A stretch of 64,000 bases of DNA. It comes from an uncultured Candidatus Saccharibacteria bacterium (GTDB lineage: Bacteria; Patescibacteriota; Minisyncoccia; Phycocordibacterales; UBA3531). The stretch lies in assembly GCA_964361405.1 (NCBI GenBank), contig CAYIAA010000001.1, positions 84,917-148,916 on the forward strand, in the 5' to 3' direction. Both the position numbers and the translations under genes were made by a program. The notes beneath the pieces are model-generated. The model was not told the origin of the DNA. It saw only the letters and a program-made list of their open reading frames with translations, and did no database searches. Shown piece after piece: positions 3,372-56,484 of this stretch. How positions within the stretch are numbered: position 1 is the first letter of the stretch; each line of letters begins with the position of its first letter.

Positions 3372-3758
3372 ATGAGTTATCTTTTCTATGTATTACTTTT
3401 CTTTGTGTCGCTTCTCGGGATGCTTGTCATCCTTATTCGAAGTGCGGGGCGGGAGAGATTTAAAGCGGAGCATGTCTATACAGATACAGAGAGAGAAATC
3501 ACCGCTACTGGTGTTCTAGTAGGGGCGGTCGTATCCGGTCTGACATACGCGGCGCAAGTAAGTGTTCGGTTCGCGGCTCCTCACCTGGGCCGAACCACAG
3601 GTATGGCGCTTCAATATCTTTCTCGTGTCCGGGCGTATGCGGGAGAGAGAATTGACCGCGCTATCGCTTTTGTGAGGGGGCGTACGCAGGTGAAGCAAGA
3701 AGGAGCAGTATCGCTTTTTCTTAAACACCTCGCTGAACACAAAGAAAAAAACGGGTGA
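3372..3758 (+). CDS. hypothetical membrane protein
   Basis: N-terminal hydrophobic helix (LFYVLLFFVSLLGMLVILI); no recognisable domain. Confidence 0.4.
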   Translation: MSYLFYVLLFFVSLLGMLVILIRSAGRERFKAEHVYTDTEREITATGVLVGAVVSGLTYAAQVSVRFAAPHLGRTTGMALQYLSRVRAYAGERIDRAIAFVRGRTQVKQEGAVSLFLKHLAEHKEKNG

Positions 3759-3778
3759 ATCTATAACGATTAATCTCT

Positions 3779-3804
3779 GCCGCCCTAGCTCAGTGGTATG
3801 ACAG
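3779..3804 (+). pseudogene. degenerate tRNA 5' fragment (acceptor plus D-arm-like GCCGCCCTAGCTCAGTGGTA, no matching 3' half)
   Basis: First about 20 nt are tRNA-like and resemble the 5' end of the downstream tRNA-Thr. The D-stem does not close and no complementary acceptor 3' strand (GGGCGGC) is present before tRNA-Thr. Confidence 0.3.
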
Positions 3805-3840
3805 TGATGTTCTATTTATCCACACCACTTGTAGGCCAAC

Positions 3841-4287
3841 ATGTGGTATACTTCACAAATGGATATCTGTGTGGAGTGCAAAAAGCCAAGGAAAAGATAT
3901 ACCAACAAGTACTGTTCTAATCGATGTCAGGTAGATCACCAATATAAACAGTACATTTCTGCTTGGCAGAAAGGACAGAAAGATGGGAACAGAGGGATTA
4001 ATGCAAAAAATATATCGAGATATTTGCTTAGATTTCTGTTAGAGAAGTGTGGAGAAAAATGCTCCCATTGTGGTTGGAATCAAAAAAATCCACACACCAA
4101 TAGAGCACCCATAGAAATTGATCACATTGACGGAGACGCTAATAATAACCTAGAGAACAACCTAAGATTATTGTGTCCCAATTGTCACGCGCTCACACCA
4201 AGTTTTAGAAATCTGAATAAAGGTAAAGGAAGGAGCTGGAGAAACAGTTACTTGAAAAAGAGACAGGTGTTGCAGATTCCTTCTTAG
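3841..4287 (+). CDS. HNH endonuclease with N-terminal zinc-ribbon
   Basis: CVECKK...YCSNRCQ zinc ribbon; CSHCGW...IEIDHIDGDANNNLENNLRLLCPNCH is a canonical HNH motif. Low-GC codon usage. Confidence 0.8.
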   Translation: MWYTSQMDICVECKKPRKRYTNKYCSNRCQVDHQYKQYISAWQKGQKDGNRGINAKNISRYLLRFLLEKCGEKCSHCGWNQKNPHTNRAPIEIDHIDGDANNNLENNLRLLCPNCHALTPSFRNLNKGKGRSWRNSYLKKRQVLQIPS

Positions 4288-4317
4288 GCTGTATTCTTGG
4301 TGAAGATGTGTGGAGTC

Positions 4318-4392
4318 GCCGGAGTAGCTCAACGGTAGAGCAATGCTTTTGTAAAGCATAGGTTGGAGGTTCAAGTCCTCTCTCCGGCTCCA
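4318..4392 (+). tRNA. tRNA-Thr (anticodon UGU), CCA encoded
   Basis: Acceptor GCCGGAG/CTCCGGC, D-arm GCTC-AACGGTA-GAGC, anticodon stem ATGCT/AGCAT with loop TTTGTAA, T-arm GGAGG-TTCAAGT-CCTCT, discriminator T then CCA. Confidence 0.9.
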
Positions 4393-4421
4393 GAATTAGA
4401 CTTTCCGATTTTTGAACGACG

Positions 4422-4460
4422 AATTAATAGGTGACACAAAGTGTCACCTATTAATTTTAT
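4422..4460 (+). terminator. rho-independent terminator (16-bp perfect hairpin plus T-tract) after tRNA-Thr
   Basis: aattaataggtgacac-aaa-gtgtcacctattaatt followed by ttat. Perfect palindrome. Confidence 0.7.
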
Positions 4461-4499
4461 GGTGGAAAATCAAAGCCACTCGTTTTGGATTTGTTGGTA

Positions 4500-4528
4500 T
4501 TGACTCTGATAATAAAATATGATTTAAT
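4500..4528 (+). promoter_or_regulatory. candidate sigma70-type promoter for island operon (TTGACT-17-TTTAAT)
   Basis: -35 TTGACT at 4500-4505 and -10 TTTAAT at 4523-4528. The region is AT-rich, so chance matches are possible. Confidence 0.3.
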
Positions 4529-4556
4529 ATGTGTAACCCTAGCAGGGGTTTTTATT

Positions 4557-5864
4557 ATGTCAAAGCAATCCGAATTTATGGAAAATCAAGGCAATAAAAC
4601 AATTGCGGTTGTCGGCCTTGGATATGTAGGGATTCCTTTAGCTTTATTGGCTGAAAGAAAGAGCTATAAGGTTATTGGTATAGATATAAACTTAGAAAAA
4701 GTGGAGTTTTTGAACAGACGTATTGCTCCTTTTTCAGACGAAGAAATAACGAAACAGCTGGAAAATTCGTCTTTGGAGGCAACGACTGATTTCAACAAAA
4801 TAAAAGACGCTTCGGTTATCATTATCTGCGTTCCGACACCGGTTTACGAAAATCATATGCCGAATTTAGAGCCGGTTGAAAATGCATGCAAAAATATTGC
4901 TAAATTTTTGCAGAAAGGACAACTTGTGATTTTAGAATCCACAGTAAATCCTGGAGTTTCCGAAAATGTTGTAATACCTATACTTGAAAAAGGATCCGGT
5001 TTAAAGGCTGGCGAAGACTTTTATGTTGCGCATTGCCCTGAACGGGTAAACCCCGGAGATAAAAACTGGACTGTAGAAAATATTCCTAGAGTTGTTGGGG
5101 GGCTTGAAGAAAAGAGCTTAGAAATGGCTTATAGGTTTTATAGCTCAGTAATTTCTGGGCAGATCAAAAAAATGGGCTCTCTTAAAGAAGCCGAAGCGGT
5201 AAAGGTTGTTGAAAACACCTTCCGTGACATTAATATCGCTTTCGTGAATGAACTGGCGATGTCATTTTCAAAACTCGGCATTGATGTCGTTAATGTAATC
5301 AATGGGGCGGCTACAAAGCCATTCGCCTTTATGGCCCATTACCCCGGAGTTGGCGTTGGTGGCCATTGTATCCCTATCGACCCATATTATTTAATTGATT
5401 ACGCAAAACAAAACGGTTTTGAGCACGATTTTTTGAAACTAGCCAGAAAAATTAACAGCAATATGCCCAAGTTTACCGCAGAAAGAGTAGCCAATGCTTT
5501 GAATGAAATGAAGATGGCAATCAATGGAGCTAAAGTTGCGGTGCTCGGCTTGGCTTACAAACCAAATATAGATGATTGCCGTGAAAGCCCAGCGTTTGAT
5601 TTGATAAAAGCATTAGAAAAATACGGCGCAAATGTGGTTTCTTATGACCTGTTTGTGTTGAACAAATCAACTGCCAAATCTCTAGATGAAGCAGTCAAAG
5701 ATTCGGTGGCGGTAGTGATAGCAACTTGCCACGACCAATTCAAGAATTTAGAGCCAGAGTATCTTTTGAAAAACGGTGTTAAAGTCGTCGTGGACGGCCG
5801 TAACTGCCTCCCCAAAGAAAAATTTATTGAGGTCGGGATTGTTTATAAAGGTATAGGACGATAA
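4557..5864 (+). CDS. nucleotide-sugar dehydrogenase (UDP-glucose/GDP-mannose dehydrogenase family; UDP-glucose 6-dehydrogenase-like)
   Basis: Rossmann motif IAVVGLGYVGIPLA and catalytic Cys context GGHCIPIDPYYL. Start chosen at the ATG preceded by AGGGG; the ORF track begins at 4485. Confidence 0.85.
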   Translation: MSKQSEFMENQGNKTIAVVGLGYVGIPLALLAERKSYKVIGIDINLEKVEFLNRRIAPFSDEEITKQLENSSLEATTDFNKIKDASVIIICVPTPVYENHMPNLEPVENACKNIAKFLQKGQLVILESTVNPGVSENVVIPILEKGSGLKAGEDFYVAHCPERVNPGDKNWTVENIPRVVGGLEEKSLEMAYRFYSSVISGQIKKMGSLKEAEAVKVVENTFRDINIAFVNELAMSFSKLGIDVVNVINGAATKPFAFMAHYPGVGVGGHCIPIDPYYLIDYAKQNGFEHDFLKLARKINSNMPKFTAERVANALNEMKMAINGAKVAVLGLAYKPNIDDCRESPAFDLIKALEKYGANVVSYDLFVLNKSTAKSLDEAVKDSVAVVIATCHDQFKNLEPEYLLKNGVKVVVDGRNCLPKEKFIEVGIVYKGIGR

Positions 5865-5868
5865 TCTC

Positions 5869-7233
5869 TTGAATCTTCGAATAGAAAAACAGGTTCTACA
5901 TCGATTTGTAGAATTTTTTGTAGCATTCGCGCTACTCACTGTTTTATTTGGTAAGATTTTTATTAGCTTAAAAGGAGATGAACTTAATCTTTTAATATTT
6001 TATGGAATCTCCGTAACTCTCGCACTCTGGCTAGTATTTTTCTTTGCATTTGTTATTTATGAAGATCCATACAGTGCTTCTAAAATTAAGCTGAAAGGTA
6101 AAAGGCCAAAGAATTATTTAGTAAGTTGTATGGTTGCAGTTCGCAATGAAGAAAAAAATATATCTCGCTGTATGGATTCAATGCTCGTACAATCCTATGA
6201 GAATAAGGAAATTATTGTAGTCAACGATGCAAGCACAGATAATACTCTAAGGATTCTTAGAGAGTACGAAAAAGATGGGCGCATAATTTTAATCAACCTT
6301 AAAGATAATCTCGGCAAAAAAAAAGCACTGGGACAGGCAATGGTGGTAGCCAAAGGAGATATATTTGCCTTTACTGATAGTGATTCTGTATGGGCTTCGG
6401 ATGCTATAAAAAGGATTGTAACGATATTTCAGGCCAATGAAGATATTGGGGCTATAAGTGGCCACAGTAGAGCTTTAAATGGCGACTACAATTTAATGAC
6501 CAAAACTCAGGATTCCTGGTATGAAGGGCAATATTCTGTACGCAAGGCATTTGAGAGTATCTGGGGCGTGGTGACTTGTGTTTCTGGTCCGCTTGCCGTT
6601 TTTCGCAGGGAGGCTATCTATAATTACATACCTGCTTGGGAAAACGACACATTCTTGGGCCAAGAATTTAAATTTGCTACAGATAGAACTTTAACTGGCT
6701 TTGTTTTGGGCAGTAAAACCATTGGCAAAAAACTAAAAGAGAAGTATAAAAACTCTCCTTTTGTAAAGAATATTGATTATCCAGAGAAAGACTGGAAAAT
6801 CGTCTATTGTAAATCTGCTCGCTCGTGGACTATTGTGCCTGATAATTTCCAGAAAGTTATTACACAGCAAGTCAGGTGGAAAAAGAGTTTTATTAGAAAC
6901 ATATTTTTTACAGGATTATTCTACTGGAAGAAACCCCTACTCCCAGCTTTGATGTATTATCTTCATATTCTATTTGTTATAGCTGGGCCATTTATAGTTT
7001 TTAGACACCTATTTTATCTCCCCATAAAGGGTAATTTTTGGACAGCTTTGCTTTATCTCATGGGCATAGTATTTATTGGTTTTATGTTTGGGTTGGCCTA
7101 CAAGCTGGAAAATAAAAATTGCCACAAGTGGATTTATAGACCCTTGATGAGTTTACTGTCAACCCTTGTTTTATGTTGGTTAATATTTTATTCGGCAATA
7201 ACAATTAAGAAAATGACATGGGTAAGGGGGTAA
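5869..7233 (+). CDS. processive family-2 glycosyltransferase, hyaluronan synthase / NodC chitin-oligosaccharide synthase-like
   Basis: Two N-terminal TM helices. Motifs GKKKAL, TDSDS (DXD), GH..AL, VSGPLAVFRRE, TDRTL and QQVRWKKSF (QxxRW) are collinear with streptococcal HasA and NodC. TTG start 5 nt after the upstream stop; a downstream start is possible. Confidence 0.85.
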   Translation: MNLRIEKQVLHRFVEFFVAFALLTVLFGKIFISLKGDELNLLIFYGISVTLALWLVFFFAFVIYEDPYSASKIKLKGKRPKNYLVSCMVAVRNEEKNISRCMDSMLVQSYENKEIIVVNDASTDNTLRILREYEKDGRIILINLKDNLGKKKALGQAMVVAKGDIFAFTDSDSVWASDAIKRIVTIFQANEDIGAISGHSRALNGDYNLMTKTQDSWYEGQYSVRKAFESIWGVVTCVSGPLAVFRREAIYNYIPAWENDTFLGQEFKFATDRTLTGFVLGSKTIGKKLKEKYKNSPFVKNIDYPEKDWKIVYCKSARSWTIVPDNFQKVITQQVRWKKSFIRNIFFTGLFYWKKPLLPALMYYLHILFVIAGPFIVFRHLFYLPIKGNFWTALLYLMGIVFIGFMFGLAYKLENKNCHKWIYRPLMSLLSTLVLCWLIFYSAITIKKMTWVRG

Positions 7234-10200
7234 ATAAAAAATTTAGGTTAATCGAGTATGTTTTTTTAATACTCATTGTCTTTACGTTTTTAACGGTTGC
7301 TGGTAAATATTCTTACAAAGATTTATACGAAAGCTATAAATCTTATAATGAGAGTCGTCGTCAGCAAACTATTGAAATAGAGCGCCAAGCTTATACATGT
7401 CCTCCAGGAACTACAACAATAATCGTAGTTGGGGGTAAGATATGTCGCACTGAAGTTTCTGATTCAACTTATAAAACAATATTTGATACATATCCATTCA
7501 AAAGTAATGGTAAGGAGCAAATTTATGAGTTTTTTTCCGAAGGAGACATTGAAAGTGCTAATCAAATATTAGCAAATAATATTCCCCTTGAGCGATACGG
7601 ATATACAAAAGTATCTGATCCAATGTCTTGGACTGAAGACCCACTTGGAGATAGATATTGGAGATTTTTGTTTTATGGTTTCCGTCCAGTGCAACATTTA
7701 TTTTTTGCTTTTGACCAAACGAATGAAAAAAAATATTTGAAAAAAGCTGAAGAAATAACTTTAAGCTTTATTGACCACGGAACGGACAAGCCTCATGCAT
7801 GGGATGATTTCCACGCGGTCTCATTTCGGACAATGTATCTCATTAAAACATGGTGGATGCTAAGAGAAAACAACCTACTTACTTATGAAGTTAATGAAAA
7901 AATACTCAAAACCCTAGAAGCACACGGAGATTTTCTAGCAGACCCTAATCATTATGATAAGGGATACAATCATGGACTAAATGAAGCGGCGGCATTGTAT
8001 TTGGTAGCTGTAAATTTTCCCGACTTCTCTCAAGCTCCAAAATGGTTGGAGTTATCGAAAAATCGATTAAACGATAGTCTGATAACCGTAGTTGATACGG
8101 ATGGTGTATTAATCGAGAATTCGCCATATTACCATTTCTATACTCTAGAAAAATACTGGGAACTTTACAATTTTGCTCAAAAACAAAACTTTCCGATAAG
8201 TGATATTTTCAACGAACGGCTTCAAGAGATGATTTCCTATGCCACTTATATACTACAGCCAAATAAAGAAATTCCACTTTTAGGAGCTTCTCTCAAACGC
8301 AAAATATCATATTCAGGAATATATAAAGACATTTCTCAATCTTTCCCAGAATTGAAGTACGTTCTTACTAATGGCAAAGAGGGCAACAAACCAACTAAGT
8401 TAAATATTACATATCCTGAATCAGGTGAAGTAATAATGCGTTCTGGATGGGGAGTGGGGGAAGAATTTGAAAATCAAACACAAGCAATTTTTGACTTTGG
8501 ACCGTATCGAACTTTGCATAGTGATTTTGATGCCCTATCGTTTAGTCTATATGCTAATGGCATAAACCTTATGCCGGATGCTGGCCTATACGCCTATGAA
8601 GAAAGCGATTATAAGAATTATTTCCATGGTACCGCTTCTCACAATACAGTAGTGGTTGATGATTTAGATCAGACGAAAGGGACGGCTGTACGAGGCGATT
8701 TTTTAGAAACCAAGGATTATGTTTCTCAATCAGCCGAACACGAATTGTACAAAGGTGTCAGTCATATGCGTAGCGGCACCCTTATCGGTAAAAGGTATTT
8801 ATTAATATTAGACAAATTGACATCTAATGAAGAACATACTTATAAGCAACTTTTTCATTTATTCCCCGGAGCAAGAATTACTACGTCTGGAACTTCAGTT
8901 AAGGTATTTGCTTCTTCTAAAGATGGCGAAGAAGAAGTAATGAATATATTTCAAATGGCGCCGGACAATATCTCACTCGATACCATAATCGGACAAACTT
9001 CTCCGCCTCGTGGGTGGTGCGCAGAAGAGTACGCCAAAGCAATTCCATGTTATTCTTTGGAATACATACAAAAATTTCAAAATGTAACATACGCAACACT
9101 TATTGAAATTGGGAAGCACGATACACGCTTACTGTATTCTTACGATGGGAAATCTATAATTATTAATGACTCGTCGCAGGTAATTAATATTGATGTTACT
9201 GACATCGAGGGATCCTACGGAAGGGTTGCTATATCAAATAATTCTCCTGTTGAGATTGAAAAATCTTCGCTAAATATTCTAAAACCGGAGAACTGGGAAG
9301 TTACAGAAAAAACAAAAAAATATGGTCAATTAATATTTGAGTCTGACTCAATAAGTTTTAGTACTAATACTAGTGGCAATCCTTTTTATGCCAATATTCC
9401 AGTACAGATTGATCTAAGTAATAAAAATCTTTTAATAAAGATGAGAGTTGTAAATCGTTATGATGTAAATAAGTTGGATATTCTGCTATCTACAAATAAC
9501 TGGGAAGGATATATCAGAAGTAACCTCAAAGATTCTTACCGCAAGGAATATGATGGTGAATGGTTAACGATTAGTCTCGGTAAGGGGCTACAGCGAGAAA
9601 CTGGTGGGCAATGGAGACAATATGGCACTGGGTTTGATTGGTCCAATATTAATGCGATAAGAATCGTATTGGGGACAGAAATACAGAAGACCGCCACATT
9701 GCAGTTGGCAGATATTGCCTTAATCCCATCGCAAAAAGAAGGTGAAGTCATTATTGTTTTTGATGATGGTTTTGAATCAATTCTCCCCGCAGTGACCTTA
9801 ATGAACGACTATGGATTTAAGGGAAATATTGCCGTCATAGCTGATAAAGTTACTGGCAACGAAAGAGGCTATCTTTCATTAAAACAGTTAAAACAAATCA
9901 AAGAAGAGCTTGGATGGGATTTAATAAATCATTCAGGACATCACGTAAGTGCACTCGAAGCTTATGTTAAATATAATGATATAGATGGCTTTACAGAAGA
10001 TTTGCTAGCCGGAGCAAAATTTCTTATAGATAACGACTTAAACACTACTCCTAATTGGTATATTTATCCTCATGGTGCGACTAATAAGGCGATTAAGGAT
10101 ATTGTCGGGAAATATTATGCTTTTGCCAGAACAACTATAAATCAGCCGGAAGCATACCCATTTGGTGATCCTCTTGGAGTAAAAACAATTTCTGCTGATG

Positions 10201-10601
10201 GTATGGAATCGTCTGGAACAAAAGTATTTGTTCCAGTTTCAGAATTGGAAAGTGCTATTATCGATGCTAAAACTTACAAATTACCACTATTTATTACCTT
10301 CCATAGAATTAGTTCTTTGCCTGGCGATAAGCCAGGATATGAATTGGGCGAATTTAAAAAATTAATTGACTTTATCAAAAAAGAAAATTTAAAAGTAAAA
10401 ACACTTCGTGAATTCGATAGCGATAATGGTATTGAACAAAAATCGTTGATATTCATCGAAAATCAACCGCCACAGTTAAGTGTCGAAATATATATAAAAT
10501 CTGTTTCCATATTTGCTAGAATACAAAATATCATCATCAATAAATGGTTATTCTTTAGAACCATTGGGGATAAGGTCACCCAAGGTTTAAATTTTTTATG
10601 A
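7218..10601 (+). CDS. membrane-anchored fusion: heparinase II/III-like polysaccharide lyase fold (N-terminal about 650 aa) plus NodB-type polysaccharide deacetylase (C-terminal about 270 aa)
   Basis: N-terminal TM (LILIVFTFLTVAG). YNHGLNEAAALY then SPYYHFY about 50 aa later match the Asn-His...Tyr catalytic arrangement of heparinase II / PL15 / PL17 enzymes. The C-terminus has NodB motifs IIVFDDGFES and NHSGHH. Confidence 0.7.
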   Translation: MGKGVNKKFRLIEYVFLILIVFTFLTVAGKYSYKDLYESYKSYNESRRQQTIEIERQAYTCPPGTTTIIVVGGKICRTEVSDSTYKTIFDTYPFKSNGKEQIYEFFSEGDIESANQILANNIPLERYGYTKVSDPMSWTEDPLGDRYWRFLFYGFRPVQHLFFAFDQTNEKKYLKKAEEITLSFIDHGTDKPHAWDDFHAVSFRTMYLIKTWWMLRENNLLTYEVNEKILKTLEAHGDFLADPNHYDKGYNHGLNEAAALYLVAVNFPDFSQAPKWLELSKNRLNDSLITVVDTDGVLIENSPYYHFYTLEKYWELYNFAQKQNFPISDIFNERLQEMISYATYILQPNKEIPLLGASLKRKISYSGIYKDISQSFPELKYVLTNGKEGNKPTKLNITYPESGEVIMRSGWGVGEEFENQTQAIFDFGPYRTLHSDFDALSFSLYANGINLMPDAGLYAYEESDYKNYFHGTASHNTVVVDDLDQTKGTAVRGDFLETKDYVSQSAEHELYKGVSHMRSGTLIGKRYLLILDKLTSNEEHTYKQLFHLFPGARITTSGTSVKVFASSKDGEEEVMNIFQMAPDNISLDTIIGQTSPPRGWCAEEYAKAIPCYSLEYIQKFQNVTYATLIEIGKHDTRLLYSYDGKSIIINDSSQVINIDVTDIEGSYGRVAISNNSPVEIEKSSLNILKPENWEVTEKTKKYGQLIFESDSISFSTNTSGNPFYANIPVQIDLSNKNLLIKMRVVNRYDVNKLDILLSTNNWEGYIRSNLKDSYRKEYDGEWLTISLGKGLQRETGGQWRQYGTGFDWSNINAIRIVLGTEIQKTATLQLADIALIPSQKEGEVIIVFDDGFESILPAVTLMNDYGFKGNIAVIADKVTGNERGYLSLKQLKQIKEELGWDLINHSGHHVSALEAYVKYNDIDGFTEDLLAGAKFLIDNDLNTTPNWYIYPHGATNKAIKDIVGKYYAFARTTINQPEAYPFGDPLGVKTISADGMESSGTKVFVPVSELESAIIDAKTYKLPLFITFHRISSLPGDKPGYELGEFKKLIDFIKKENLKVKTLREFDSDNGIEQKSLIFIENQPPQLSVEIYIKSVSIFARIQNIIINKWLFFRTIGDKVTQGLNFL

Positions 10602-11539
10602 AACTAATTATTATTTTCTTTTTATCTTTTATATTTATTGTGTTTTTATATTCACATCCTAAGATTTTAATGCCAACACACTCAACATCAATCAAAGAAA
10701 AGAATCCAATCCTAGTTTCCCCAAGACCTAGCAATACCCCCGTTGTCACAGATGGGATTAAAATACTCTACCCAACGAAAGAAAATGGACGAGTCTGGTA
10801 TGCAGGGTGGTCAGATAGAGACGCGATAACCTTAAAAAGCGGAAAAAGCGACCCTTCTGACTTAGAATTTATTGCCCGAGGTAATGGAACGGTTTCTATT
10901 GGTGGTGAAGGCATAGCCCACCTTCAAGGGGCTTCTCCAAGAATGTATGTTCTTGATCCTGCAAAAAATAAAAAATGGAACAATGTCGAGGTTACGATAT
11001 ATGGAAAACGTATATCAGAAGCTGGTTTCGAGAGCTCGCAAGGCATAGTAATTGGAGCTAGAAGCGAGCATCAGGATGCAACGAAAGAAACCTCCTGCCT
11101 CGGGTGGACATATTATGGAAGATTACTTTATGATGGGCGTGCAGTTTTTCAGAAAGAAATAATTCATGAGGGAGCATATAGTATAAATAAACCAGAGGAG
11201 AATAATAAAGCGATTTGGGACACTACTGACGGTTCATTGCCGCGGAATAAATGGATCGGGGTAAAGTTTATAGTAAAAACAAATCTCGATAGAAAATCAG
11301 TAAAGTTAGAGCTTTACCGTGATTTAACGGACGGCTATAAGGGAGGAAATTGGGAAAAAGTCGCAGAATATACTGATAGCGGTGATTGGTTTCAAACTGA
11401 TACTGACGCAGACGTGATGGCGGTGTGCGGTTACCCAGCAAGTAAAATACTTTTAGACTCCGGTACTTCTGTTTTTATAAGAAATGATAAGGTTAAAGAT
11501 GTGGAATATAAATTATTCAGTATTAGGGAAATAGAGTAA
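10598..11539 (+). CDS. secreted or membrane-anchored beta-sandwich (concanavalin/jelly-roll-like) protein, possible polysaccharide-binding or lyase
   Basis: N-terminal signal/TM (MKLIIIFFLSFIFIVFLYS) and a beta-rich sequence. ATGA overlap with the upstream gene. Family not identified. Confidence 0.5.
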   Translation: MKLIIIFFLSFIFIVFLYSHPKILMPTHSTSIKEKNPILVSPRPSNTPVVTDGIKILYPTKENGRVWYAGWSDRDAITLKSGKSDPSDLEFIARGNGTVSIGGEGIAHLQGASPRMYVLDPAKNKKWNNVEVTIYGKRISEAGFESSQGIVIGARSEHQDATKETSCLGWTYYGRLLYDGRAVFQKEIIHEGAYSINKPEENNKAIWDTTDGSLPRNKWIGVKFIVKTNLDRKSVKLELYRDLTDGYKGGNWEKVAEYTDSGDWFQTDTDADVMAVCGYPASKILLDSGTSVFIRNDKVKDVEYKLFSIREIE

Positions 11540-11657
11540 TTACAAATTGAGTCCAAAGCAAGCAGTGGTGAGGAGGCTTTCATTAGTTAGGAATTTTTGA
11601 TAAAGTAGATTCTAACACAGTCATAAAGATACTTGTGATAAATCTAATAACATTCAT

Positions 11658-12173
11658 ATGGTTAATGTAGGAACACAGGCACCAGATTTTGAACTCGAGG
11701 GAGTGAAGGATGGCACATTCGCGAAGTATGCCCTTAAAAATTTCAAGGGGAAGTGGCTTGTGATATTTTTCTATCCACTCGACTTTACTTTTGTCTGCCC
11801 GACGGAAATCAGAGAATTTTCGAAACATACATCTGACTTTAAAAAGGCAAAAGCTGAAATAGTGGGAGTCTCTGTCGATTCCGTGCATTCGCACAAGGCA
11901 TGGATTGAGCACTCGCTGGGAAAGATTCATTTCCCACTCCTTTCTGATTTTCATAAAACTATGTCTACGGACTATGGAGTTCTAATTCCCGAAGAGGGTG
12001 TATCACTACGTGGGACTTTCATTGTTGACCCAAAGGGAATAATTCGACACATTACTATATCGGATAATGATGTTGGGCGAAGTGTTTCAGAAACGCTTCG
12101 GGTTGTGAAGGCATTACAGACAGGCCGCCTTTGCCCTGTTGAATGGAAACCTGGCGAGAAAACTCTTTCATAA
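11658..12173 (+). CDS. 2-Cys peroxiredoxin (AhpC/TSA family)
   Basis: Peroxidatic Cys motif FTFVCPTEI and resolving Cys near the C-terminus (GRLCPVEW). Confidence 0.85.
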   Translation: MVNVGTQAPDFELEGVKDGTFAKYALKNFKGKWLVIFFYPLDFTFVCPTEIREFSKHTSDFKKAKAEIVGVSVDSVHSHKAWIEHSLGKIHFPLLSDFHKTMSTDYGVLIPEEGVSLRGTFIVDPKGIIRHITISDNDVGRSVSETLRVVKALQTGRLCPVEWKPGEKTLS

Positions 12174-12239
12174 TTTTTACATCGATTCACAAAAAAGCTC
12201 TTTACCAAGGGCTTTTTTGAATGTATAGTTGAGCTACTT

Positions 12240-12980
12240 ATGCATATTGAGAAAATCCAGCGGAATGGTCACCTTCATCCACTCACCCTAATTATTAGGG
12301 ACTTGCTCGAAATATTTATTTCCCTTGGTTTTTCTATAGCCGAGAGTCCGGAACTTGAAAGCGAGCATTATAATTTTGATGTATTAAATATTCCCAAAAA
12401 TCATCCAGCTCGCGATATGCAAGATACTTTTTGGATTAAGGGGAGGAAAGACACCGTTCTTCGTACCCATGTATCAAATACACAAGTTCGTTACATGGAG
12501 AATAATAAACCGCCACTGCGAATTGTCTATTTCGGAAAAGTGTTCCGCAGTGAAGCAACCGACGCTACGCACGAAGCGCAATTTCGTCAATTTGAGGCGC
12601 TTGCCGTGGGGGAAGATATCACACTCGGTAATTTGAAATGGACACTTGAGCTTTTTCTAAAAAAACTTTTTGGCGAAAATGCTGAAATCAGGATTCGCCC
12701 TGGATATTTTCCATTTGTTGAACCAGGTCTCGAAGCGGATGTCGCGTGTTTTAAATGCGCTGGGAGAGGTTGCGGGCTCTGCAAGCACACTGGTTGGATT
12801 GAAGTATTGGGGGCAGGTATGGTGCACCCGAAAGTACTTGAAGCGGGAGGTATTGATAGCACGAAGTGGCGGGGGTTTGCATTTGGAGCCGGGTGGGAAC
12901 GCATAGCAATGCTCAAATACGGCATTGATGACATCCGACTTTTTTCTTCGGGTGACTTGCGGCTCGTGAATCAATTTTAA
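12240..12980 (+). CDS. pheS: phenylalanine--tRNA ligase alpha subunit (short form lacking N-terminal extension)
   Basis: Class II core motifs (FRSEATDATHEAQFRQFE; GAGWERIAM); immediately followed by pheT. Confidence 0.85.
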   Translation: MHIEKIQRNGHLHPLTLIIRDLLEIFISLGFSIAESPELESEHYNFDVLNIPKNHPARDMQDTFWIKGRKDTVLRTHVSNTQVRYMENNKPPLRIVYFGKVFRSEATDATHEAQFRQFEALAVGEDITLGNLKWTLELFLKKLFGENAEIRIRPGYFPFVEPGLEADVACFKCAGRGCGLCKHTGWIEVLGAGMVHPKVLEAGGIDSTKWRGFAFGAGWERIAMLKYGIDDIRLFSSGDLRLVNQF

Positions 12981-51739: not shown

Positions 51740-53707
51740 TCAACGGATGTGTTTCGCTTTGTCGAGATAGTCGAGGATTGTATTAATGAATTCGGCATGG
51801 CTCCACGTGAGCGGTGCCACCGATATTTGTTCTCCGGTGTGTGGGTCGAGTTGCTCGGACATAATGCCCGAGGGGAGTGCACGATCGCAGACCCATTTGA
51901 ATCCATCACGCACCATCTCGAGGTCTTTTTTCGTTTCCGCTATTGCAATCTGGTACTGATGGAGCCAGAGCGTTGTCAAAAACCATGGATTTCCCGTGAT
52001 GTGAGCGTCCTTTCTGTGGTACGGATCATTTTCGTGACGCGCGATGCCGCCAATGTGGCCGTGATCTCCGGTAGTTGAGAAAGAAAGTTTATTCACCACT
52101 GTTTCAAATGATTTTTTGATTCGCTCGTCGTCTTTCGGGAGAACTCCGAATCGATAGGGCCCGTAGAAACTACTCACGTCAATGGTGCGGTCAACATGCA
52201 TTTCTCCGCCTCTCGTATCGATGAGTTTTACGAAACAGCCGAGTTTCTCATCATACAGGTGTGCCAAGATGCCTTCTTTAACCTCGCGCGCACCCTGATC
52301 GTACTTTTCCGATTCTTCTTTTTTCCCGAGGACATCGGCAAAATTACTTGCGGCGCGGAGCGCCGCATAGACCGTCGCCGCCGTAAACGTGGACGTCCCG
52401 AACTTTTCTTCCCAAAGATCATACGATCCGTAGGGGAGACCGGTTTTCTCATCGCGGTAGAAATAGAGGAAGTCCGCGATTTTTTTCACGAACGGATTGT
52501 AAATTTTCTCGATGAACTCGAGATTGTGGTGAAGCGCATAGTGGTTCCACAAAGCGTGGAGAACGAGTGCCGTTTCGTCTTCTTGTATGGCGAGTTGTTT
52601 CTTGTCGTTATACACCCACGGATGCCAGGAACTCCCGAGCGAGCCGTCGGATTGGTATTTGTGATGGAGGTATCCTTCCTCGGAGAGAACTTTATTGCAA
52701 AATTCGAAAAAACGATTTGTTACTTCGATATAGCCCATCCGATCGAGCGCAATCGCCGTGAGTGCGCCGTCGCGTGGCCACATATAGTTATAGGTGTCGC
52801 GTCCATACTGGAGAATGTCCGAATCTCCGGAGGCAATAATGGCTCCGCCGTTATCCACGTGAGTGCGAATGATAAGGAGGGATTTTTTGAAAAGGTCTTC
52901 GAGTCGCGTGTCGATGTCGATTAAGTTTACCTGATTCTTGTTGACCCATGCTCTCCAATAGTTCGCCGTCGTTTCCACCATGTGGTTCGGAGTTTTCAGC
53001 TTGATTTCTTTCCAGAGCGTTTTTATTTCACTGAGGTCTCTTGCGGCGATGATGATGTAGTCGAATGTGCTCGAGCTCATTGCCGGGATATCGTGATGGA
53101 AACCGATGGTGGAATCAACCGAGCCGTGCTCAACCGGGTTTTTTGAAAGCACTCCGTCTTCGGCATCGCGCCAGGTGCCTTCCTTTCCTTCGATGTTGAA
53201 TACCCCAACGGAGTAGTCGTCGAAACTTCTGCCGTCTAAGTGTGCCCCGGTGACGAGAAAAATTCTTCTGCCGCGGTAGTGAATGATTGATGCAAAATCC
53301 GGGTCATAGTAGGCGGTGTTCCCGTGGTTTAATCCACTGATTTCGAACTGCTGGTTAAAAAATATCCTGATCGAGCGGTTACGGTTCCAGCGGTTTTCAA
53401 TGGTGATGCGCCGTATAAATACGTTGTCTTCGTTATAAACCGTATCTCGGAAGTGAAGGGAAATATTCAATTCGCGGTTCTCCGCGTCAATCCGTGAGAC
53501 GAGGGTTTCTCCGTCATAGTTGGTCCGCACATCCCAACCTTCGCCAACCCAGCTGTACGTTCCGTCAACCCAAATACCGATCCGATGAATGCAGTCAGCG
53601 GTTTGGTTCTCGAGTCCCACATGAGGGAAGTGGAAGTCGCGCACTCTCCCGTAGCGGTCGAAACCGATGAGAACATTCCCATTTCCCAATACGAGAGATC
53701 GAGGCAT
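51740..53707 (-). CDS. glycoside hydrolase family 15 (glucoamylase/glucodextranase/trehalase-like)
   Basis: N-terminal beta domain plus (alpha/alpha)6 region with the MWPRDGALTAIAL (WxRDxA) GH15 motif. Confidence 0.85.
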   Translation of the reverse strand: MPRSLVLGNGNVLIGFDRYGRVRDFHFPHVGLENQTADCIHRIGIWVDGTYSWVGEGWDVRTNYDGETLVSRIDAENRELNISLHFRDTVYNEDNVFIRRITIENRWNRNRSIRIFFNQQFEISGLNHGNTAYYDPDFASIIHYRGRRIFLVTGAHLDGRSFDDYSVGVFNIEGKEGTWRDAEDGVLSKNPVEHGSVDSTIGFHHDIPAMSSSTFDYIIIAARDLSEIKTLWKEIKLKTPNHMVETTANYWRAWVNKNQVNLIDIDTRLEDLFKKSLLIIRTHVDNGGAIIASGDSDILQYGRDTYNYMWPRDGALTAIALDRMGYIEVTNRFFEFCNKVLSEEGYLHHKYQSDGSLGSSWHPWVYNDKKQLAIQEDETALVLHALWNHYALHHNLEFIEKIYNPFVKKIADFLYFYRDEKTGLPYGSYDLWEEKFGTSTFTAATVYAALRAASNFADVLGKKEESEKYDQGAREVKEGILAHLYDEKLGCFVKLIDTRGGEMHVDRTIDVSSFYGPYRFGVLPKDDERIKKSFETVVNKLSFSTTGDHGHIGGIARHENDPYHRKDAHITGNPWFLTTLWLHQYQIAIAETKKDLEMVRDGFKWVCDRALPSGIMSEQLDPHTGEQISVAPLTWSHAEFINTILDYLDKAKHIR

Positions 53708-53822
53708 CTAGGTCAGATGGATTTTTTTTCGCGAACGTGAAATTTTTATTCCCGCCCCCCATTTCATAATAGATGTATGCTCATACGCTATCCTTAAGTA
53801 TATCGTTTGCAGTTTTTCTCGT

Positions 53823-55052
53823 CTACACGGTTGCGAGCGCCTCCGCCCTTTTTTCTTCTTTTCCACTCGCGAGCCGCAACTCCAAATCTTTGAGCACGTT
53901 CATATAGGAAAGATAGGCATCGTAAGGAGTGTCGTAGGGATTAAAGTATTTGTGGACATCGCCGTCGGCGAACCACTTTGTGCACATGTAGTAGAAATGG
54001 TCCGAGGTTTGCATGCGACGCCACGCGTCAAGGATATCGTAGCTCTTACTCGCGAGGACGCGCTCTCTTAGGCCATAGAGTGCTCGGAGCGCATCGTGTT
54101 GCATCGAGTTCGAGAGCCATGCCGAGAGGTCGCGCTCAACGTCTGCCCAGGAAACGTAGTGGGGGACATCGAGCTCGGCAACCGGCTTAAAGAGCGTCAT
54201 CGCCTCGGATGGCGTGATGAAACAATTATTGGAACTTTTCAGAAGTTCTCCGGGGAGTGCGCGGAGGAAGTCAAAAATTCCGGTGTCTTCCCACTGGTGT
54301 TCACCGAAAGTTTCATAATCCATAAAGAGATTTACGACCTGCGCATTGCCCTGCTTCGCATTTATCCACGAGCCGTATTTCCCAGTATCAAGCGGCCACT
54401 CTTCCCACGAACGTGAAGAAAATCTGAAAGCGATATCGTCGGAGAGTTTGTAATTCTTGAGAAGAAGTCCCATCTTCTTTGTTCCTCGTGGGCGGTAGAG
54501 AAAATCGGGACTTCGCCAGCCCAAAACATGATCCGCCCCTTCGGCGAGTATTCCCCGGAAACCCATACCTTCCGCGGCGAGCGCGAGGTCGTTTCGGTAG
54601 ATGAGTTCGGTGTTCCGGAAAACTTGCGGTCGCACCCCGAATACTTTTTCTATGGTACGGCGGTGCATATCAACCTGCTCGGCGAATTCTTCCATTGAGT
54701 AAAGGAATGAAAGCGAGTGGTAATACGTTTCGCCAAGGATTTCGACGCGGCCCGTTTTGACCAGGTCCTGAAACGATTTGAGCACCTCTGGAGCGAATTC
54801 CTTAAATTGTTCAAGGATTACACCGGTCAGAGAAAACGTCACTTTGAACTCCGGGTGTTGTTTCAAAAGTTCGAGGAGAATGCGATTTGTGGGGAGATAC
54901 GATTTCTCCGCTACCTTTCGGAGGACAAACTGATTGTTTAAGTTGCCATTCGTCCCGTTAAAATAGTTCCGGTCTTTCCCGATATCGAAGACGCGGTAAG
55001 GTTTGAGACGGTAGGGTTGATGGACTTGGAAGTAGAGGCAGAGTGCAGGCAT
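53823..55052 (-). CDS. glycoside hydrolase family 57 (alpha-amylase/4-alpha-glucanotransferase/branching enzyme family)
   Basis: YFQVHQPYR matches GH57 region 1 (HQP). Start set at internal ATG 55052 to avoid a 43-nt overlap. Confidence 0.8.
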   Translation of the reverse strand: MPALCLYFQVHQPYRLKPYRVFDIGKDRNYFNGTNGNLNNQFVLRKVAEKSYLPTNRILLELLKQHPEFKVTFSLTGVILEQFKEFAPEVLKSFQDLVKTGRVEILGETYYHSLSFLYSMEEFAEQVDMHRRTIEKVFGVRPQVFRNTELIYRNDLALAAEGMGFRGILAEGADHVLGWRSPDFLYRPRGTKKMGLLLKNYKLSDDIAFRFSSRSWEEWPLDTGKYGSWINAKQGNAQVVNLFMDYETFGEHQWEDTGIFDFLRALPGELLKSSNNCFITPSEAMTLFKPVAELDVPHYVSWADVERDLSAWLSNSMQHDALRALYGLRERVLASKSYDILDAWRRMQTSDHFYYMCTKWFADGDVHKYFNPYDTPYDAYLSYMNVLKDLELRLASGKEEKRAEALATV

Positions 55053-55057
55053 AGCTT

Positions 55058-56278
55058 CTATGTTAAACCAGAGGTCAGTTTTCCGTAAATCGAGAGACAT
55101 TTCTCCGCGGCCTTATCCCACGTCACACCGCGCGCCTCCGCACTGCCATATTCGCCGAGTGTGTCCTTGAGCGGTGGGTACGCGAGGACTCCGAGGATTT
55201 TATTCGCCATTTCCTCGACATCCCAAAAATCGACCTTAAGCGCGTGTTTCAAGACTTCGGACACGCCCGACTGCTTCGAGATAAGTACGGGAACCCCCTC
55301 TATTAGTGCTTCAAGCGGGGTAATGCCGAAAGGTTCTGATACGGAGGGCATGACATAGAGATCGCTCGCTCGATAGACCTCCGCAAGTTCCTCTCCACGG
55401 AGAAATCCAGTGAAAATAATTTTATCGCCGATGCCCATATAACTCGCTTCCGCGATGAGCTGGCGCTCCATGTCGCCGGATCCCGAGATGATAAAAATAA
55501 CTCGAGGATTCACTTCAAGCACGCGCTTCGCTGTGCGTAAAAAGTAATCCGCGCCTTTTTGAATGGTGAGGCGCCCCACGAAGGAGACCACGCTGTACCC
55601 ATGACTCTTGAATGCGAGTGTAGTTTCTCCTACCTTTCGTCGCGGATCCGCACTCATTTCGACACCATTATGAACCACTTCAACTTTGTCGGGGTTAATT
55701 CCGTACCTACTGGTGACGATGTCTTTCGTAAATCCTGAAACGGTTGCGACGCGGTCGGCGGTTTCCATACCCCAGCGCTCTTTCCCGTAGACATGTTCAT
55801 TAATATTGTGTCCACCGGTACGATCGAATTCCGTTGCGTGTACGTGTACGACAAGCGGTTTTCCACTTACTTCTTTTGCGCCGACTCCGGCGCCGAAGGT
55901 GAGCCAGTCGTGCGCGTGGATTACGTCGAAGCGCTCGCGAGCGGCAATTGCGCGCGAAAGTTGGGCAAAGCGCTCGACTTCTTGAAAAAGATTTGCTCCG
56001 TAGAGCCGCTGTTTCTTCGAGTCGAGGTTCCCATACTCTTCATCGTATGATTCGCTCGAGAGATAGGGCGAGAGGGGAGAGTCAACGATGAGATAATCAA
56101 TGCCATCGCCCGCAAAGACAAGTTTCAAATGATCCGCCTTGATAGGCTGTTTTTTTGGAAGCACGAAAATCACTTTTGATCCGCGCGCCACGAGCGCCTT
56201 GCTCAAACCAAAGCAGGCGACACCAAGCCCACCGCTGTTAAAAGGAGGGAGCTCCCAGCCGAACATTAAAATGGTCAT
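55058..56278 (-). CDS. GT4-type glycosyltransferase (archaeal-type glycogen/alpha-glucan synthase-like)
   Basis: N-terminal MFGWELPPFNSGGLG and C-terminal GITPLEALIEGVPV (E-x7-E). Clustered with GH57 and GH15. Confidence 0.7.
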   Translation of the reverse strand: MTILMFGWELPPFNSGGLGVACFGLSKALVARGSKVIFVLPKKQPIKADHLKLVFAGDGIDYLIVDSPLSPYLSSESYDEEYGNLDSKKQRLYGANLFQEVERFAQLSRAIAARERFDVIHAHDWLTFGAGVGAKEVSGKPLVVHVHATEFDRTGGHNINEHVYGKERWGMETADRVATVSGFTKDIVTSRYGINPDKVEVVHNGVEMSADPRRKVGETTLAFKSHGYSVVSFVGRLTIQKGADYFLRTAKRVLEVNPRVIFIISGSGDMERQLIAEASYMGIGDKIIFTGFLRGEELAEVYRASDLYVMPSVSEPFGITPLEALIEGVPVLISKQSGVSEVLKHALKVDFWDVEEMANKILGVLAYPPLKDTLGEYGSAEARGVTWDKAAEKCLSIYGKLTSGLT

Positions 56279-56484
56279 CCGATTTGGATGGTAACAGTGC
56301 TTTTTGCACACTTAAAAGCGCGAGCAGAAGCACTTTCTCAAGTATATCTCGAAAACACTCTATAGTGTGCTCATTATTTGCCTTTCGGCTGTGCATAACG
56401 CACTACGTGATAAACATTTTTCTGATTTTTCTCTATAGTGAGCGAAAAAAGAGATTTTCCGTGTCAAAATAGTCCAATTCATCC

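Follow-up and report, generated by a model that had tools for sequence, protein, structure and literature searches.

The locus analyzed here raises the question of what role a single polypeptide that joins a heparinase-like domain to a NodB-type deacetylase might play beside a hyaluronan-synthase-like enzyme. The gene for this fusion protein is described here with three neighboring genes of the window, that is, the whole 64-kb (64,000-nucleotide) stretch of DNA that was analyzed.

4557..5864, plus strand: NDP-sugar 6-dehydrogenase of the UDP-N-acetylhexosamine (UDP-HexNAc) clade, with three UDPG_MGDP_dh Pfam domains
5869..7233, plus strand: membrane-embedded processive GT2 synthase, class-I hyaluronan-synthase (HAS)/chitin-synthase-like, with Pfam Glycos_transf_2 and Chitin_synth_2
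7218..10601, plus strand: fusion protein of 1127 aa, comprising an anchor, a PL12-like domain, a beta domain and a CE4 domain
10598..11539, plus strand: protein of 313 aa that begins with a hydrophobic anchor or signal and has a concanavalin-A-like (ConA-like) jelly-roll

Domain architecture of the fusion protein

The fusion protein divides into the following parts, given together with the residues of its two catalytic sets.

7236..7316, plus strand: N-terminal membrane anchor, aa 7-33 (hydropathy peak 2.36)
7503..8366, plus strand: PL12-like helical (alpha/alpha) toroid, aa ~96-383 (Pfam Hepar_II_III_N)
7968-7973, plus strand: N251/H252 in the toroid, aligned with HepIII N240/H241
8130-8132, plus strand: Y305 in the toroid, aligned with HepIII Y294
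8406..9110, plus strand: PL12-like beta-sandwich, aa ~397-631 (Pfam Hepar_II_III_C)
8517-8519, plus strand: H434 in the beta-sandwich, aligned with HepIII H424
9135..9728, plus strand: middle beta domain, aa ~640-837, galactose-binding-domain-like
9744..10427, plus strand: CE4/NodB deacetylase domain, aa ~843-1070
9762-9767, plus strand: D849/D850 of CE4 motif 1 (VFDDG)
9930-9932, plus strand: H905 of CE4 motif 2 (HSGHH)
9942-9944, plus strand: H909 of CE4 motif 2 (HSGHH)
10302-10304, plus strand: H1029 (TFHR)
10509..10595, plus strand: C-terminal amphipathic helix, aa 1098-1126, poorly conserved (structure model)

Inspection of the N-terminal half reveals an (alpha/alpha) toroid followed by an antiparallel beta-sandwich, the PL12-type arrangement, which bears out the heparinase II/III-like fold proposed in a preliminary description of this DNA. 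The structure model is helical over aa 146-383, and the Hepar_II_III_N and Hepar_II_III_C matches both exceed the Pfam gathering cut-offs (69 and 100 bits). PL12 lyases are the only relatives of this half detectable at the sequence level (phmmer against 4mmh, E 2e-28), and the solved PL12 structures that it matches are all heparin-sulfate lyases. Among the closest known systems is HepIII/HepC (PL12; Pedobacter heparinus 4MMH and Bacteroides thetaiotaomicron BT4657 5JMF/4FNV), where Tyr294 and His424 are catalytic and Asn240 neutralizes the substrate carboxylate (PMC12088678). The corresponding Asn/His...Tyr...His set, on whose conservation the proposed fold assignment hinged, is nearly invariant across 72 homologs of 35-78% identity, where N251 is kept in 71/72, H252 in 69/72, Y305 in 72/72 and H434 in 71/72; equivalents of Y305, H434 and N251 also persist in the versions from archaea and Actinoplanes and in distant paralogs. 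Paralogs of the lyase-like domain that lack a synthase partner occur in Solirubrobacterales and Myxococcota. The NCBIfam cut-offs for HepC equivalogs were not reached (129.7 bits versus a cut-off of 700, and 76.2 versus 600), and these scores mark the fusion protein as a remote member of the family rather than an ortholog of HepC.

The C-terminal domain has the distorted (beta/alpha) barrel of the NodB fold and carries the Asp-His-His metal triad and the catalytic Asp, as expected for the deacetylase suggested earlier. Its motif 1 and 2 residues are conserved among the same homologs (D849 in 72/72, D850 in 70/72, H905 in 70/72 and H909 in 72/72), as is H1029 (70/72), which sits at the expected place of motif 5, the motif of the catalytic-acid His, and aligns with the "FH" of the Haloferax tailed virus 1 (HFTV1) protein. 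The Polysacc_deac_1 match is marginal at 26.3 bits against a gathering threshold of 23.1, and some homologs also match PF10096/DUF2334. The motif-3 position reads YIYPHG, without the usual Arg (RxPY), and an invariant R971 lies 20 residues further on. Related loci also contain a second CE4 type, in which the second motif-2 His is absent. The idea that the CE4 domain is optional in synthase-linked proteins, drawn from tblastn and our own HMMs matching only the lyase-like part, was rejected, since Pfam finds a different, more canonical CE4 at their C-terminus.

Positively charged residues (K3, K7, K8 and R10) precede the hydrophobic stretch of the N-terminal anchor by hydropathy and sequence, and the structure model renders aa 5-57, anchor included, as one long helix. 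Two Cys pairs are conserved in the family; for the beta-sandwich pair C601/C611, the two residues are present in 66 and 65, respectively, of the 72 homologs. This single anchor and the two Cys pairs argue for a protein body that lies outside the membrane, in agreement with the earlier prediction of one N-terminal transmembrane helix and external domains. The C-terminal helix is too weakly hydrophobic for hydropathy to call a transmembrane segment; pLDDT drops along it in the structure model and the family consensus is undefined there. The middle beta domain is probably carbohydrate-binding.

The same architecture occurs in 109/120 of the best homologs, which come from Patescibacteria, Actinomycetota and other bacteria as well as from DPANN archaea. 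The description of this architecture as unusual holds only among characterized enzymes. A plasmid collection yielded separate lyase-like or deacetylase genes and no fused version, and no description of the fusion or its cassette was found in the literature searched.

Linkage to a processive synthase

The genes of the locus are tightly packed, where the GT2 gene and the fusion gene overlap by 16 nt and the fusion gene and its downstream neighbor by 4 nt. A scan for promoters and terminators over 3600-12400 was uninformative (25 promoter-like sites versus 27.8 expected, and 8 terminator-like sites versus 5.9). Hydropathy places two membrane segments at the N-terminus of the GT2 and three at its C-terminus. 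Its best solved relatives are the Chlorella-virus HAS (CvHAS, 4e-18) and Xenopus HAS1, and the motifs DSD, (S/G)GPL, TFLG..xDRxLT and QQxRWxKS line up with CvHAS. A processive GT2 is the adjacent gene in 23/27 related loci, which corresponds to 23/25 of those with usable flanks, and this linkage spans distant phyla and archaea. Because the gene almost always adjoins a hyaluronan-synthase-like enzyme, tailoring of an acidic surface polysaccharide is its most likely task, and the target is most likely a so far uncharacterized polymer of that kind which many uncultured bacteria and archaea produce. The genomic context points to a synthase-dependent exopolysaccharide operon.

The dehydrogenase speaks to the possible composition of this polymer. 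The gene caller starts it at 4557, with an alternative TTG start at 4485. In NCBIfam it ranks highest as a UDP-ManNAc dehydrogenase (362 bits), ahead of TviB (265) and UDP-Glc dehydrogenases (170-207), all below the equivalog cut-off. Comparison with PDB sequences gives the same order, where the UDP-ManNAcA dehydrogenase 4r16 (3e-86) and Cap5O (2e-70) precede UDP-Glc dehydrogenases (~1e-37). Adjoining dehydrogenases in related loci belong to the UDP-HexNAc clade as well. Because such a gene adjoins the fusion/GT2 pair in only about a third of related loci (8-9/27), we infer, rather than show, that the polymer contains uronic acid. No UDP-GlcNAc 2-epimerase, sought to narrow the dehydrogenase substrate, occurs in the 64-kb window, a weak hint in favor of UDP-GlcNAc.

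The downstream 313-aa protein matches no Pfam family; its family profile found no match among PDB sequences, nor did the protein itself among PHROGs. Comparison by hhalign was positive for related locus L022, but negative for L005, where the protein compared is a Laminin_G_3 protein, and for the same-position protein of L007. Three residues of the downstream protein, R155, H158 and Y172, are invariant. In some homologs a ConA-like domain is fused to the fusion-type enzyme itself.

Proposed function and competing readings

With moderate confidence, we propose that the fusion protein is a membrane-anchored, extracytoplasmic polysaccharide-tailoring enzyme with two activities, serving as the dedicated partner of the upstream HAS-like processive GT2. 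What was established directly here is the folds and that catalytic residues and gene linkage are conserved; polymer identity, topology and chemistry are what we infer in the following scheme. The dehydrogenase, going by its clade, would produce a UDP-N-acetylhexosaminuronic acid. The GT2, by homology to HAS, would then polymerize a chain containing HexNAc and uronic acid and extrude it by way of the membrane channel that the synthase itself forms. On the outer side, some N-acetyl groups would be stripped by the CE4 domain, using a metal bound to its Asp-His-His triad. In the lyase-like domain, N251 would neutralize the uronate carboxylate while the Y305/H434 pair takes the C5 proton, and the domain would most likely cut the chain by beta-elimination, leading to release or length control. 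Binding of the polymer may fall to the middle beta domain and to the ConA-like protein encoded downstream.

Several observations count against this proposal, namely that the PL12 structures matched are all heparin-sulfate lyases, that the scores lie far below the HepC equivalog cut-offs, that a dehydrogenase gene adjoins in only about a third of related loci, that the CE4 match is marginal, that the motif-3 Arg is off its canonical place and that the second CE4 type of related loci lacks a motif-2 His. To our knowledge, the PL12 family is represented only by degradative enzymes.

Sequence cannot separate chain cleavage from C5 epimerization by the lyase-like domain. A tentative possibility is that the domain works in the same biosynthetic setting as a polymer-level uronyl C5-epimerase, where the proton is returned from the opposite face with no 4-O elimination, such that the epimerase and CE4 domains together form a minimal "deacetylate and epimerize" enzyme, the combination put forward in the preliminary description. 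However, PL12 lyases are its sole relatives detectable at the sequence level, and all three lyase residues are intact, including the Tyr that acts as general acid. The searches made found no prokaryotic epimerase with such a fold, and Glce is absent from the top structural matches. The lyase-like domain is also the obvious candidate for chain cleavage, a role seen in the PgaB and PelA systems, and every characterized synthase-dependent system that we know of has a chain-cleaving enzyme. The archaeal C5-epimerase Agl32 was set aside, as its paper mentions neither heparinase nor lyase.

A broader version of the epimerase reading, which we regard as doubtful, would have Patescibacteria, DPANN archaea and Actinomycetota share, in this cassette, a widespread and as yet undescribed prokaryotic route to a glycosaminoglycan-like polymer, where the lyase-like domain as polymer-level uronyl C5-epimerase and the deacetylase mature a HAS-type product. 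If true, it would represent a prokaryotic counterpart, and possibly the evolutionary source, of the lyase-fold epimerases in animal dermatan and heparan sulfate biosynthesis.

The near invariance of both catalytic sets over 35-78% identity, together with the persistence of lyase-type residues in all divergent versions, is hard to explain by binding alone. This makes it improbable that the fusion protein is mainly a non-catalytic or partly catalytic scaffold, one that guides the nascent chain as BcsB does for BcsA and uses one or both catalytic domains as binding modules.

The least probable reading is that of a degradative or foraging enzyme for foreign glycosaminoglycan-like or host-cell surface polysaccharides, with incidental GT2 adjacency. 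It draws on the heparin-sulfate lyases among the matched structures and the degradative record of their family, on the probable host, a bacterium of ultra-small size from groundwater (0.1 um filter fraction), a kind of organism that is often episymbiotic, and on the resemblance of the CBM and CE4 module to a viral host-glycan-modifying protein; however, synthase linkage is kept with overlapping genes in 23/25 evaluable loci over distant phyla and archaea, the gene tables of this and the inspected related loci list no sugar-uptake or downstream catabolic genes, and the protein is membrane-anchored, not secreted.

Relation to known systems and significance

The tailoring enzyme proposed here is best read as an analog of PgaB (PNAG) and PelA (Pel), in which a deacetylase is joined to a domain that cleaves the glycan of a synthase-dependent system (PMC5933820, PMC12022489). 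As in that class, a processive membrane GT2 synthase is encoded in the same operon (16-nt overlap; 23/25 evaluable loci). The cleaving domain of PgaB and PelA is a glycoside hydrolase (PMC5933820, PMC12022489), whereas in the fusion protein its place is taken by a polysaccharide-lyase fold, and this implies that the polymer contains uronic acid. Homology to PgaB or PelA is confined to the CE4 domain, with none to their hydrolase domains, and no TPR/porin export partners of the Gram-negative PgaB/PelA systems were seen at the fusion locus. Lyase genes inside biosynthetic operons are known from alginate, where AlgL has a different fold (PL5). HepIII is a soluble, degradative enzyme, while the lyase-like domain of the fusion protein is membrane-anchored, shares its chain with CBM-like and CE4 domains and is encoded in a synthase operon.

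Streptococcal and chlorovirus hyaluronan synthesis likewise pairs a single membrane-embedded HAS-like GT2 with a nucleotide-sugar 6-dehydrogenase, where the dehydrogenase belongs to the UDP-glucose clade rather than the UDP-HexNAc clade of the fusion locus. We know of no deacetylase or lyase in has operons. Among animal enzymes, DS-epi1 has the toroid and beta-sandwich fold and the His/Tyr active site in common with the lyase-like half, with no relation at the sequence level. The parallel with heparan-sulfate maturation drawn in the preliminary description found no homology support: the deacetylase is of the CE4 type, Pfam finds neither a Glce nor an NDST-type domain, Glce is absent from the top structural matches, and no sulfotransferase gene was called in the 10 kb to the left and right or seen at the related loci that were inspected. 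The turret head protein of HFTV1 (gp31; PDB 8QPG), a trimer that decorates the capsid and is proposed to both bind and modify host glycans, resembles the CBM and CE4 module and has neither a lyase-like domain nor a synthase context. A cassette described in a paper on horizontal transfer of bacterial chitin synthase (PMC5122149) is a different one (DUF1501/DUF1800).

If the proposed tailoring function holds, it would place a heparinase-III-type domain at work in biosynthesis, and the three-gene core, comprising a HAS-like synthase, a lyase-fold/CBM/CE4 modifier and a ConA-like protein, would constitute a new synthase-dependent system, joined in about a third of related loci by a UDP-HexNAc dehydrogenase. 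The carriers of the cassette are ultra-small groundwater bacteria, DPANN archaea and soil Actinomycetota. Its product is probably an acidic, partly de-N-acetylated surface polymer, and hence possibly zwitterionic, which could matter for the attachment of episymbiotic cells to hosts or surfaces. The family also offers a natural experiment on switching between lyase and epimerase within one fold. At about 3.144-3.152 Mb of NZ_CP192038.1, the cultured strain Actinoplanes sp. CA-030573 has separate neighboring genes for a lyase-like protein, a GT2 and two proteins of the CE4 type, and this unfused version makes the choice between lyase and epimerase directly testable.

Organization of the cassette and the fusion protein

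Inspection of the window reveals the fusion gene to be the third of four genes in one direction.

Cassette genes (window positions)
4557-5864 (+), nucleotide-sugar 6-dehydrogenase, from sequence relatives
5869-7233 (+), GT2 with 2+3 membrane segments, from hydropathy and sequence relatives
7218-10601 (+), fusion gene, 1127 aa
10598-11539, downstream protein, 313 aa, family lacking a Pfam model

The cassette occupies a low-GC block (~3750-12400; GC about 0.33-0.41 vs about 0.49 in the flanks) with housekeeping genes on both sides, on a groundwater metagenome contig from the 0.1 um filter fraction. An HNH endonuclease ORF (3841-4287; phrog_1271, E 3e-17) marks the left edge of the block, and its right end lies near peroxiredoxin and pheS genes; this setting is compatible with the cassette having been acquired horizontally by a housekeeping region. 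Elsewhere, the window holds a small glucan-metabolism cluster at 51740-56311 (-), comprising GH15 (51740-53707), GH57 with a weak Polysacc_deac_1 match (53823-55100) and a GT4 glycosyltransferase (55058-56311), as well as a T4SS-pilin-like gene (56975-57907).

The dehydrogenase is nearest to UDP-ManNAc, UDP-GalNAc and UDP-GlcNAc dehydrogenases (4r16, 3e-86; Cap5O, 2e-70), with UDP-glucose dehydrogenases more distant (about 1e-37). For the GT2, class I hyaluronan synthases (HAS) are the best solved relatives, and its motifs DSD, (S/G)GPL, TFLG..xDRxLT and QQxRWxKS align with Chlorella-virus HAS; its product cannot be named because the NCBIfam models PgaC and NodC rank alike, both under their cut-offs. 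The GT2 and fusion genes share an overlap of 16 nt.

The fusion gene is a single unbroken ORF with three Pfam domains and the motifs YNHG (250), SPYYH (302), VFDDG (847) and HSGHH (905), which confirms, far beyond chance, the joining of a heparinase-like domain to a NodB deacetylase reported in the preliminary description. The single N-terminal membrane helix described there is also borne out by hydropathy, with K3, K7, K8 and R10 ahead of it. An AlphaFold2 model built from 72 homologs is confident (pLDDT 92.4, pTM 0.86).

Segments of the fusion protein (aa)
5-57, long anchor and stalk helix, AlphaFold2 model
7-33, lone membrane helix, hydropathy
113-379, Hepar_II_III_N, Pfam E 5e-19
~146-383, helical region (toroid), AlphaFold2 model
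~397-631, beta-sandwich, AlphaFold2 model
400-581, Hepar_II_III_C, Pfam E 2e-28
~640-837, further (middle) beta domain, AlphaFold2 model
839-963, Polysacc_deac_1, Pfam E 8e-6, 26.3 bits vs cut-off 23.1
~843-1070, alpha/beta domain (CE4), AlphaFold2 model
1098-1126, poorly conserved amphipathic helix, AlphaFold2 model

Only four cysteines occur in the protein, and they fall into two conserved pairs, C61/C76 (kept in 52 and 51 of 72 homologs) and C601/C611 (66 and 65 of 72). Together with the single N-terminal anchor, these pairs point to an extracytoplasmic location, and it is from them that we infer the topology.

Structural relatives and conserved residues

Fold, sequence and residues all place the N-terminal half in the heparinase II/III (PL12-like) family, as a distant member. 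Heparinase III leads the structural match list (5jmf, 39.8; 4fnv, 37.3), followed by the HFTV1 turret head protein (8qpg, 34.1), PL17 (31.7), PL40 (26.8), PL15 (26.4), human dermatan-sulfate epimerase 1 (6hzn, 26.1), PL39 (25.5), PL35 (24.9), heparinase II (23.8) and CE4 deacetylases (16-19). Foldseek gives the same picture (4mmh, E 1e-31), and Glce is absent from both lists. The lyase fold initially proposed thus stands, with PL12 heparinase III, rather than heparinase II, PL15 or PL17, as its closest family. By sequence, heparinase III proteins are the only solved structures related to this half (E 2e-28); it is not a HepC ortholog, scoring 130 bits where the cut-off is 700.

Only one solved protein is related by sequence to the C-terminal half, the HFTV1 turret head protein (E 4e-6), in which a galactose-binding-like domain precedes a Zn-binding deacetylase-like domain (PMC12494034). 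Because of that layout, the middle beta domain and CE4 look like a unit of carbohydrate-binding module and deacetylase.

In heparinase III (4MMH), Tyr294 and His424 are catalytic and Asn240 neutralises the carboxylate (PMC12088678). These align by phmmer with Y305, H434 and N251 of the fusion protein, with the 4MMH chain numbering offset by 24. The His/Tyr pair and the Asp-His-His metal triad, both expected from the preliminary description, are near-invariant.

Residues kept among 72 homologs (35-78% identity)
Lyase-like domain: N251 71/72, H252 69/72, Y305 72/72, H434 71/72
CE4: D849 72/72, D850 70/72, H905 70/72, H909 72/72, R971 72/72, H1029 70/72

The C-terminal domain belongs to CE4 and has its metal triad intact; its motif-3 position reads YIYPHG, so that the usual Arg is missing from its canonical place. 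Archaeal versions, distant paralogs and the unfused protein of Actinoplanes also retain the lyase-type residues. Such near-invariance of both catalytic residue sets weakens a mainly scaffolding role for the fusion protein, which we consider very unlikely.

Distribution, linkage and proposed role

A large protein search returned 314 relatives, and the order lyase-like, middle, CE4 is common to 109 of the best 120. The co-occurrence is therefore widespread and the architecture is not rare, contrary to what had been supposed. Scanning one genome per GTDB species matched at least 600 stretches; among the matches listed, 493 encode a relative, and these matches include Patescibacteria (Ryan-, Sacchari-, Moran- and Berkelbacteria), Actinomycetota (Gaiellales, Micropruina, Actinoplanes), Bdellovibrionales, Dehalococcoidia, Gammaproteobacteria and DPANN archaea. 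Database labels of relatives read only 'heparinase II/III family protein', 'polysaccharide deacetylase' or 'hypothetical', and within the limits of the literature searched no description of either the fusion or the cassette turned up.

Linkage was counted over 27 non-window loci, chosen by a family-profile score of 560 bits or more for the lyase-like domain. In 23 of them the immediate neighbour is a processive chitin-synthase/HAS-type GT2; two of the four others lie at contig edges. A same-clade dehydrogenase is present in 8/27 loci (9 with a truncated copy counted). At a Magasanikbacteria-type locus (L004, 1496-5551), the neighbouring dehydrogenase belongs to the UDP-glucose type and forms a pair with a TviC-like 4-epimerase; an IS1595-family transposase lies between this pair and the GT2. 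Since that dehydrogenase is of another type, uronic-acid supply may differ among lineages, or the pair may be unrelated to the cassette.

In synthase-dependent exopolysaccharide systems it is an established design that one extracytoplasmic enzyme carries both a deacetylase and a chain-cleaving domain, as in PgaB (PNAG) and PelA (Pel) (PMC5933820, PMC12022489). The fusion protein matches this design but lacks homology to the hydrolase parts of PgaB and PelA: the fold of its putative cleaving module is that of a polysaccharide lyase. Chemistry of that fold needs uronic acid, which matches the often-accompanying dehydrogenase. On these two grounds we propose that the fusion protein is a modifying enzyme of a synthase-dependent pathway, a general role that we hold to be very probable. 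Beyond the folds, the kept residues and the conserved linkage, which the data show, we infer a polymer and two reactions: the cassette would make an acidic polymer containing N-acetylhexosamine, CE4 would partially de-N-acetylate it, the heparinase-III-like domain would abstract the uronate C5 proton, most likely cleaving the chain by beta-elimination, and the middle domain and the ConA-like downstream protein would bind it. For this full statement, lyase chemistry included, we judge the chances to be about even.

The heparinase-III-like domain could instead be a C5-epimerase, which is unlikely but the strongest of the alternatives and would preserve the idea of the preliminary description. 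Human DS-epimerase 1 uses the same fold and residue types, and its authors suggest that minute active-site changes may turn a lyase into an epimerase (PMC8006597); on sequence, cleavage and epimerisation are not separable. Against epimerisation, the protein shows homology to neither Glce nor NDST and the neighbourhood lacks a sulfotransferase, which also leaves the earlier analogy to heparan-sulfate maturation unsupported. A degradative or foraging role, weakened by the conserved, overlapping synthase linkage, is the least probable of all. The main interest of the proposed modifying enzyme is that a PL12-type domain probably serves biosynthesis in it, together with the breadth of the cassette across poorly known lineages and a lyase-versus-epimerase question that is testable.

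Variant arrangements

The downstream protein belongs to a family of at least 150 members (43-77% identity) with a ConA-like jelly-roll fold and numerous invariant residues of polar or aromatic character (R115, E131, R155, S156, H158, Y172, Y173, E187, K223, D242, D260, R295 and E311). Its 'ARSEHQD' stretch may recall jelly-roll lyase motifs, and the protein could act as a lectin or as an enzyme. The fusion homologs P0014 and P0027 end in a C-terminally fused domain of the downstream-protein type; in others, extensions of comparable length are Laminin_G_3 or have no assignment. Conversely, the two halves are adjacent ORFs at a DPANN locus (L056), and the cultured Actinoplanes sp. CA-030573 encodes the parts as separate neighbouring genes in a different order (L045, 9824-16903; NZ_CP192038.1): lyase-like (657 aa), HAS-like GT2 (481 aa), CE4 (334 aa), a protein of 281 aa that matches nothing in Pfam, and another CE4 (606 aa), with a DDE transposase near the set. 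The split Actinoplanes and fused P0014 and P0027 forms tie all the parts into one functional unit, and the Actinoplanes strain offers a practical experimental system.

That CE4 is optional in the family was considered and rejected: apparent lyase-only proteins at four loci have another, more canonical CE4 (Pfam, 52-72 bits).

Second fusion version (locus positions)
L017, 9767-13375
L019, 3291-6665
L021, 1717-5352
L022, 1555-5136

This alternative CE4 keeps the Asp-Asp motif, and its motif 2 is H-T-x-x-(T/G/S/A), missing the second metal-binding His; it is possibly inactive or has a different metal site. The C-terminal tail of this version (~200 aa) is unlike that of the window protein, and the protein 3' of the L022 fusion is a remote homolog of the window's downstream protein (hhalign 95%). 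Four further homologs (P0044, P0045, P0055, P0067) have an additional N-terminal extension of 480-575 aa, which in P0055 holds an extra CE4-like segment (residues 147-214). In Solirubrobacterales and Myxococcota loci (L027-L034, L036-L044, L048-L053), the lyase-like domain has numerous paralogs at about 32-36% identity that keep the catalytic residues; they frequently make up the C-terminal half of an ORF of about 1000 aa, and no HAS-like GT2 or CE4 adjoins them.
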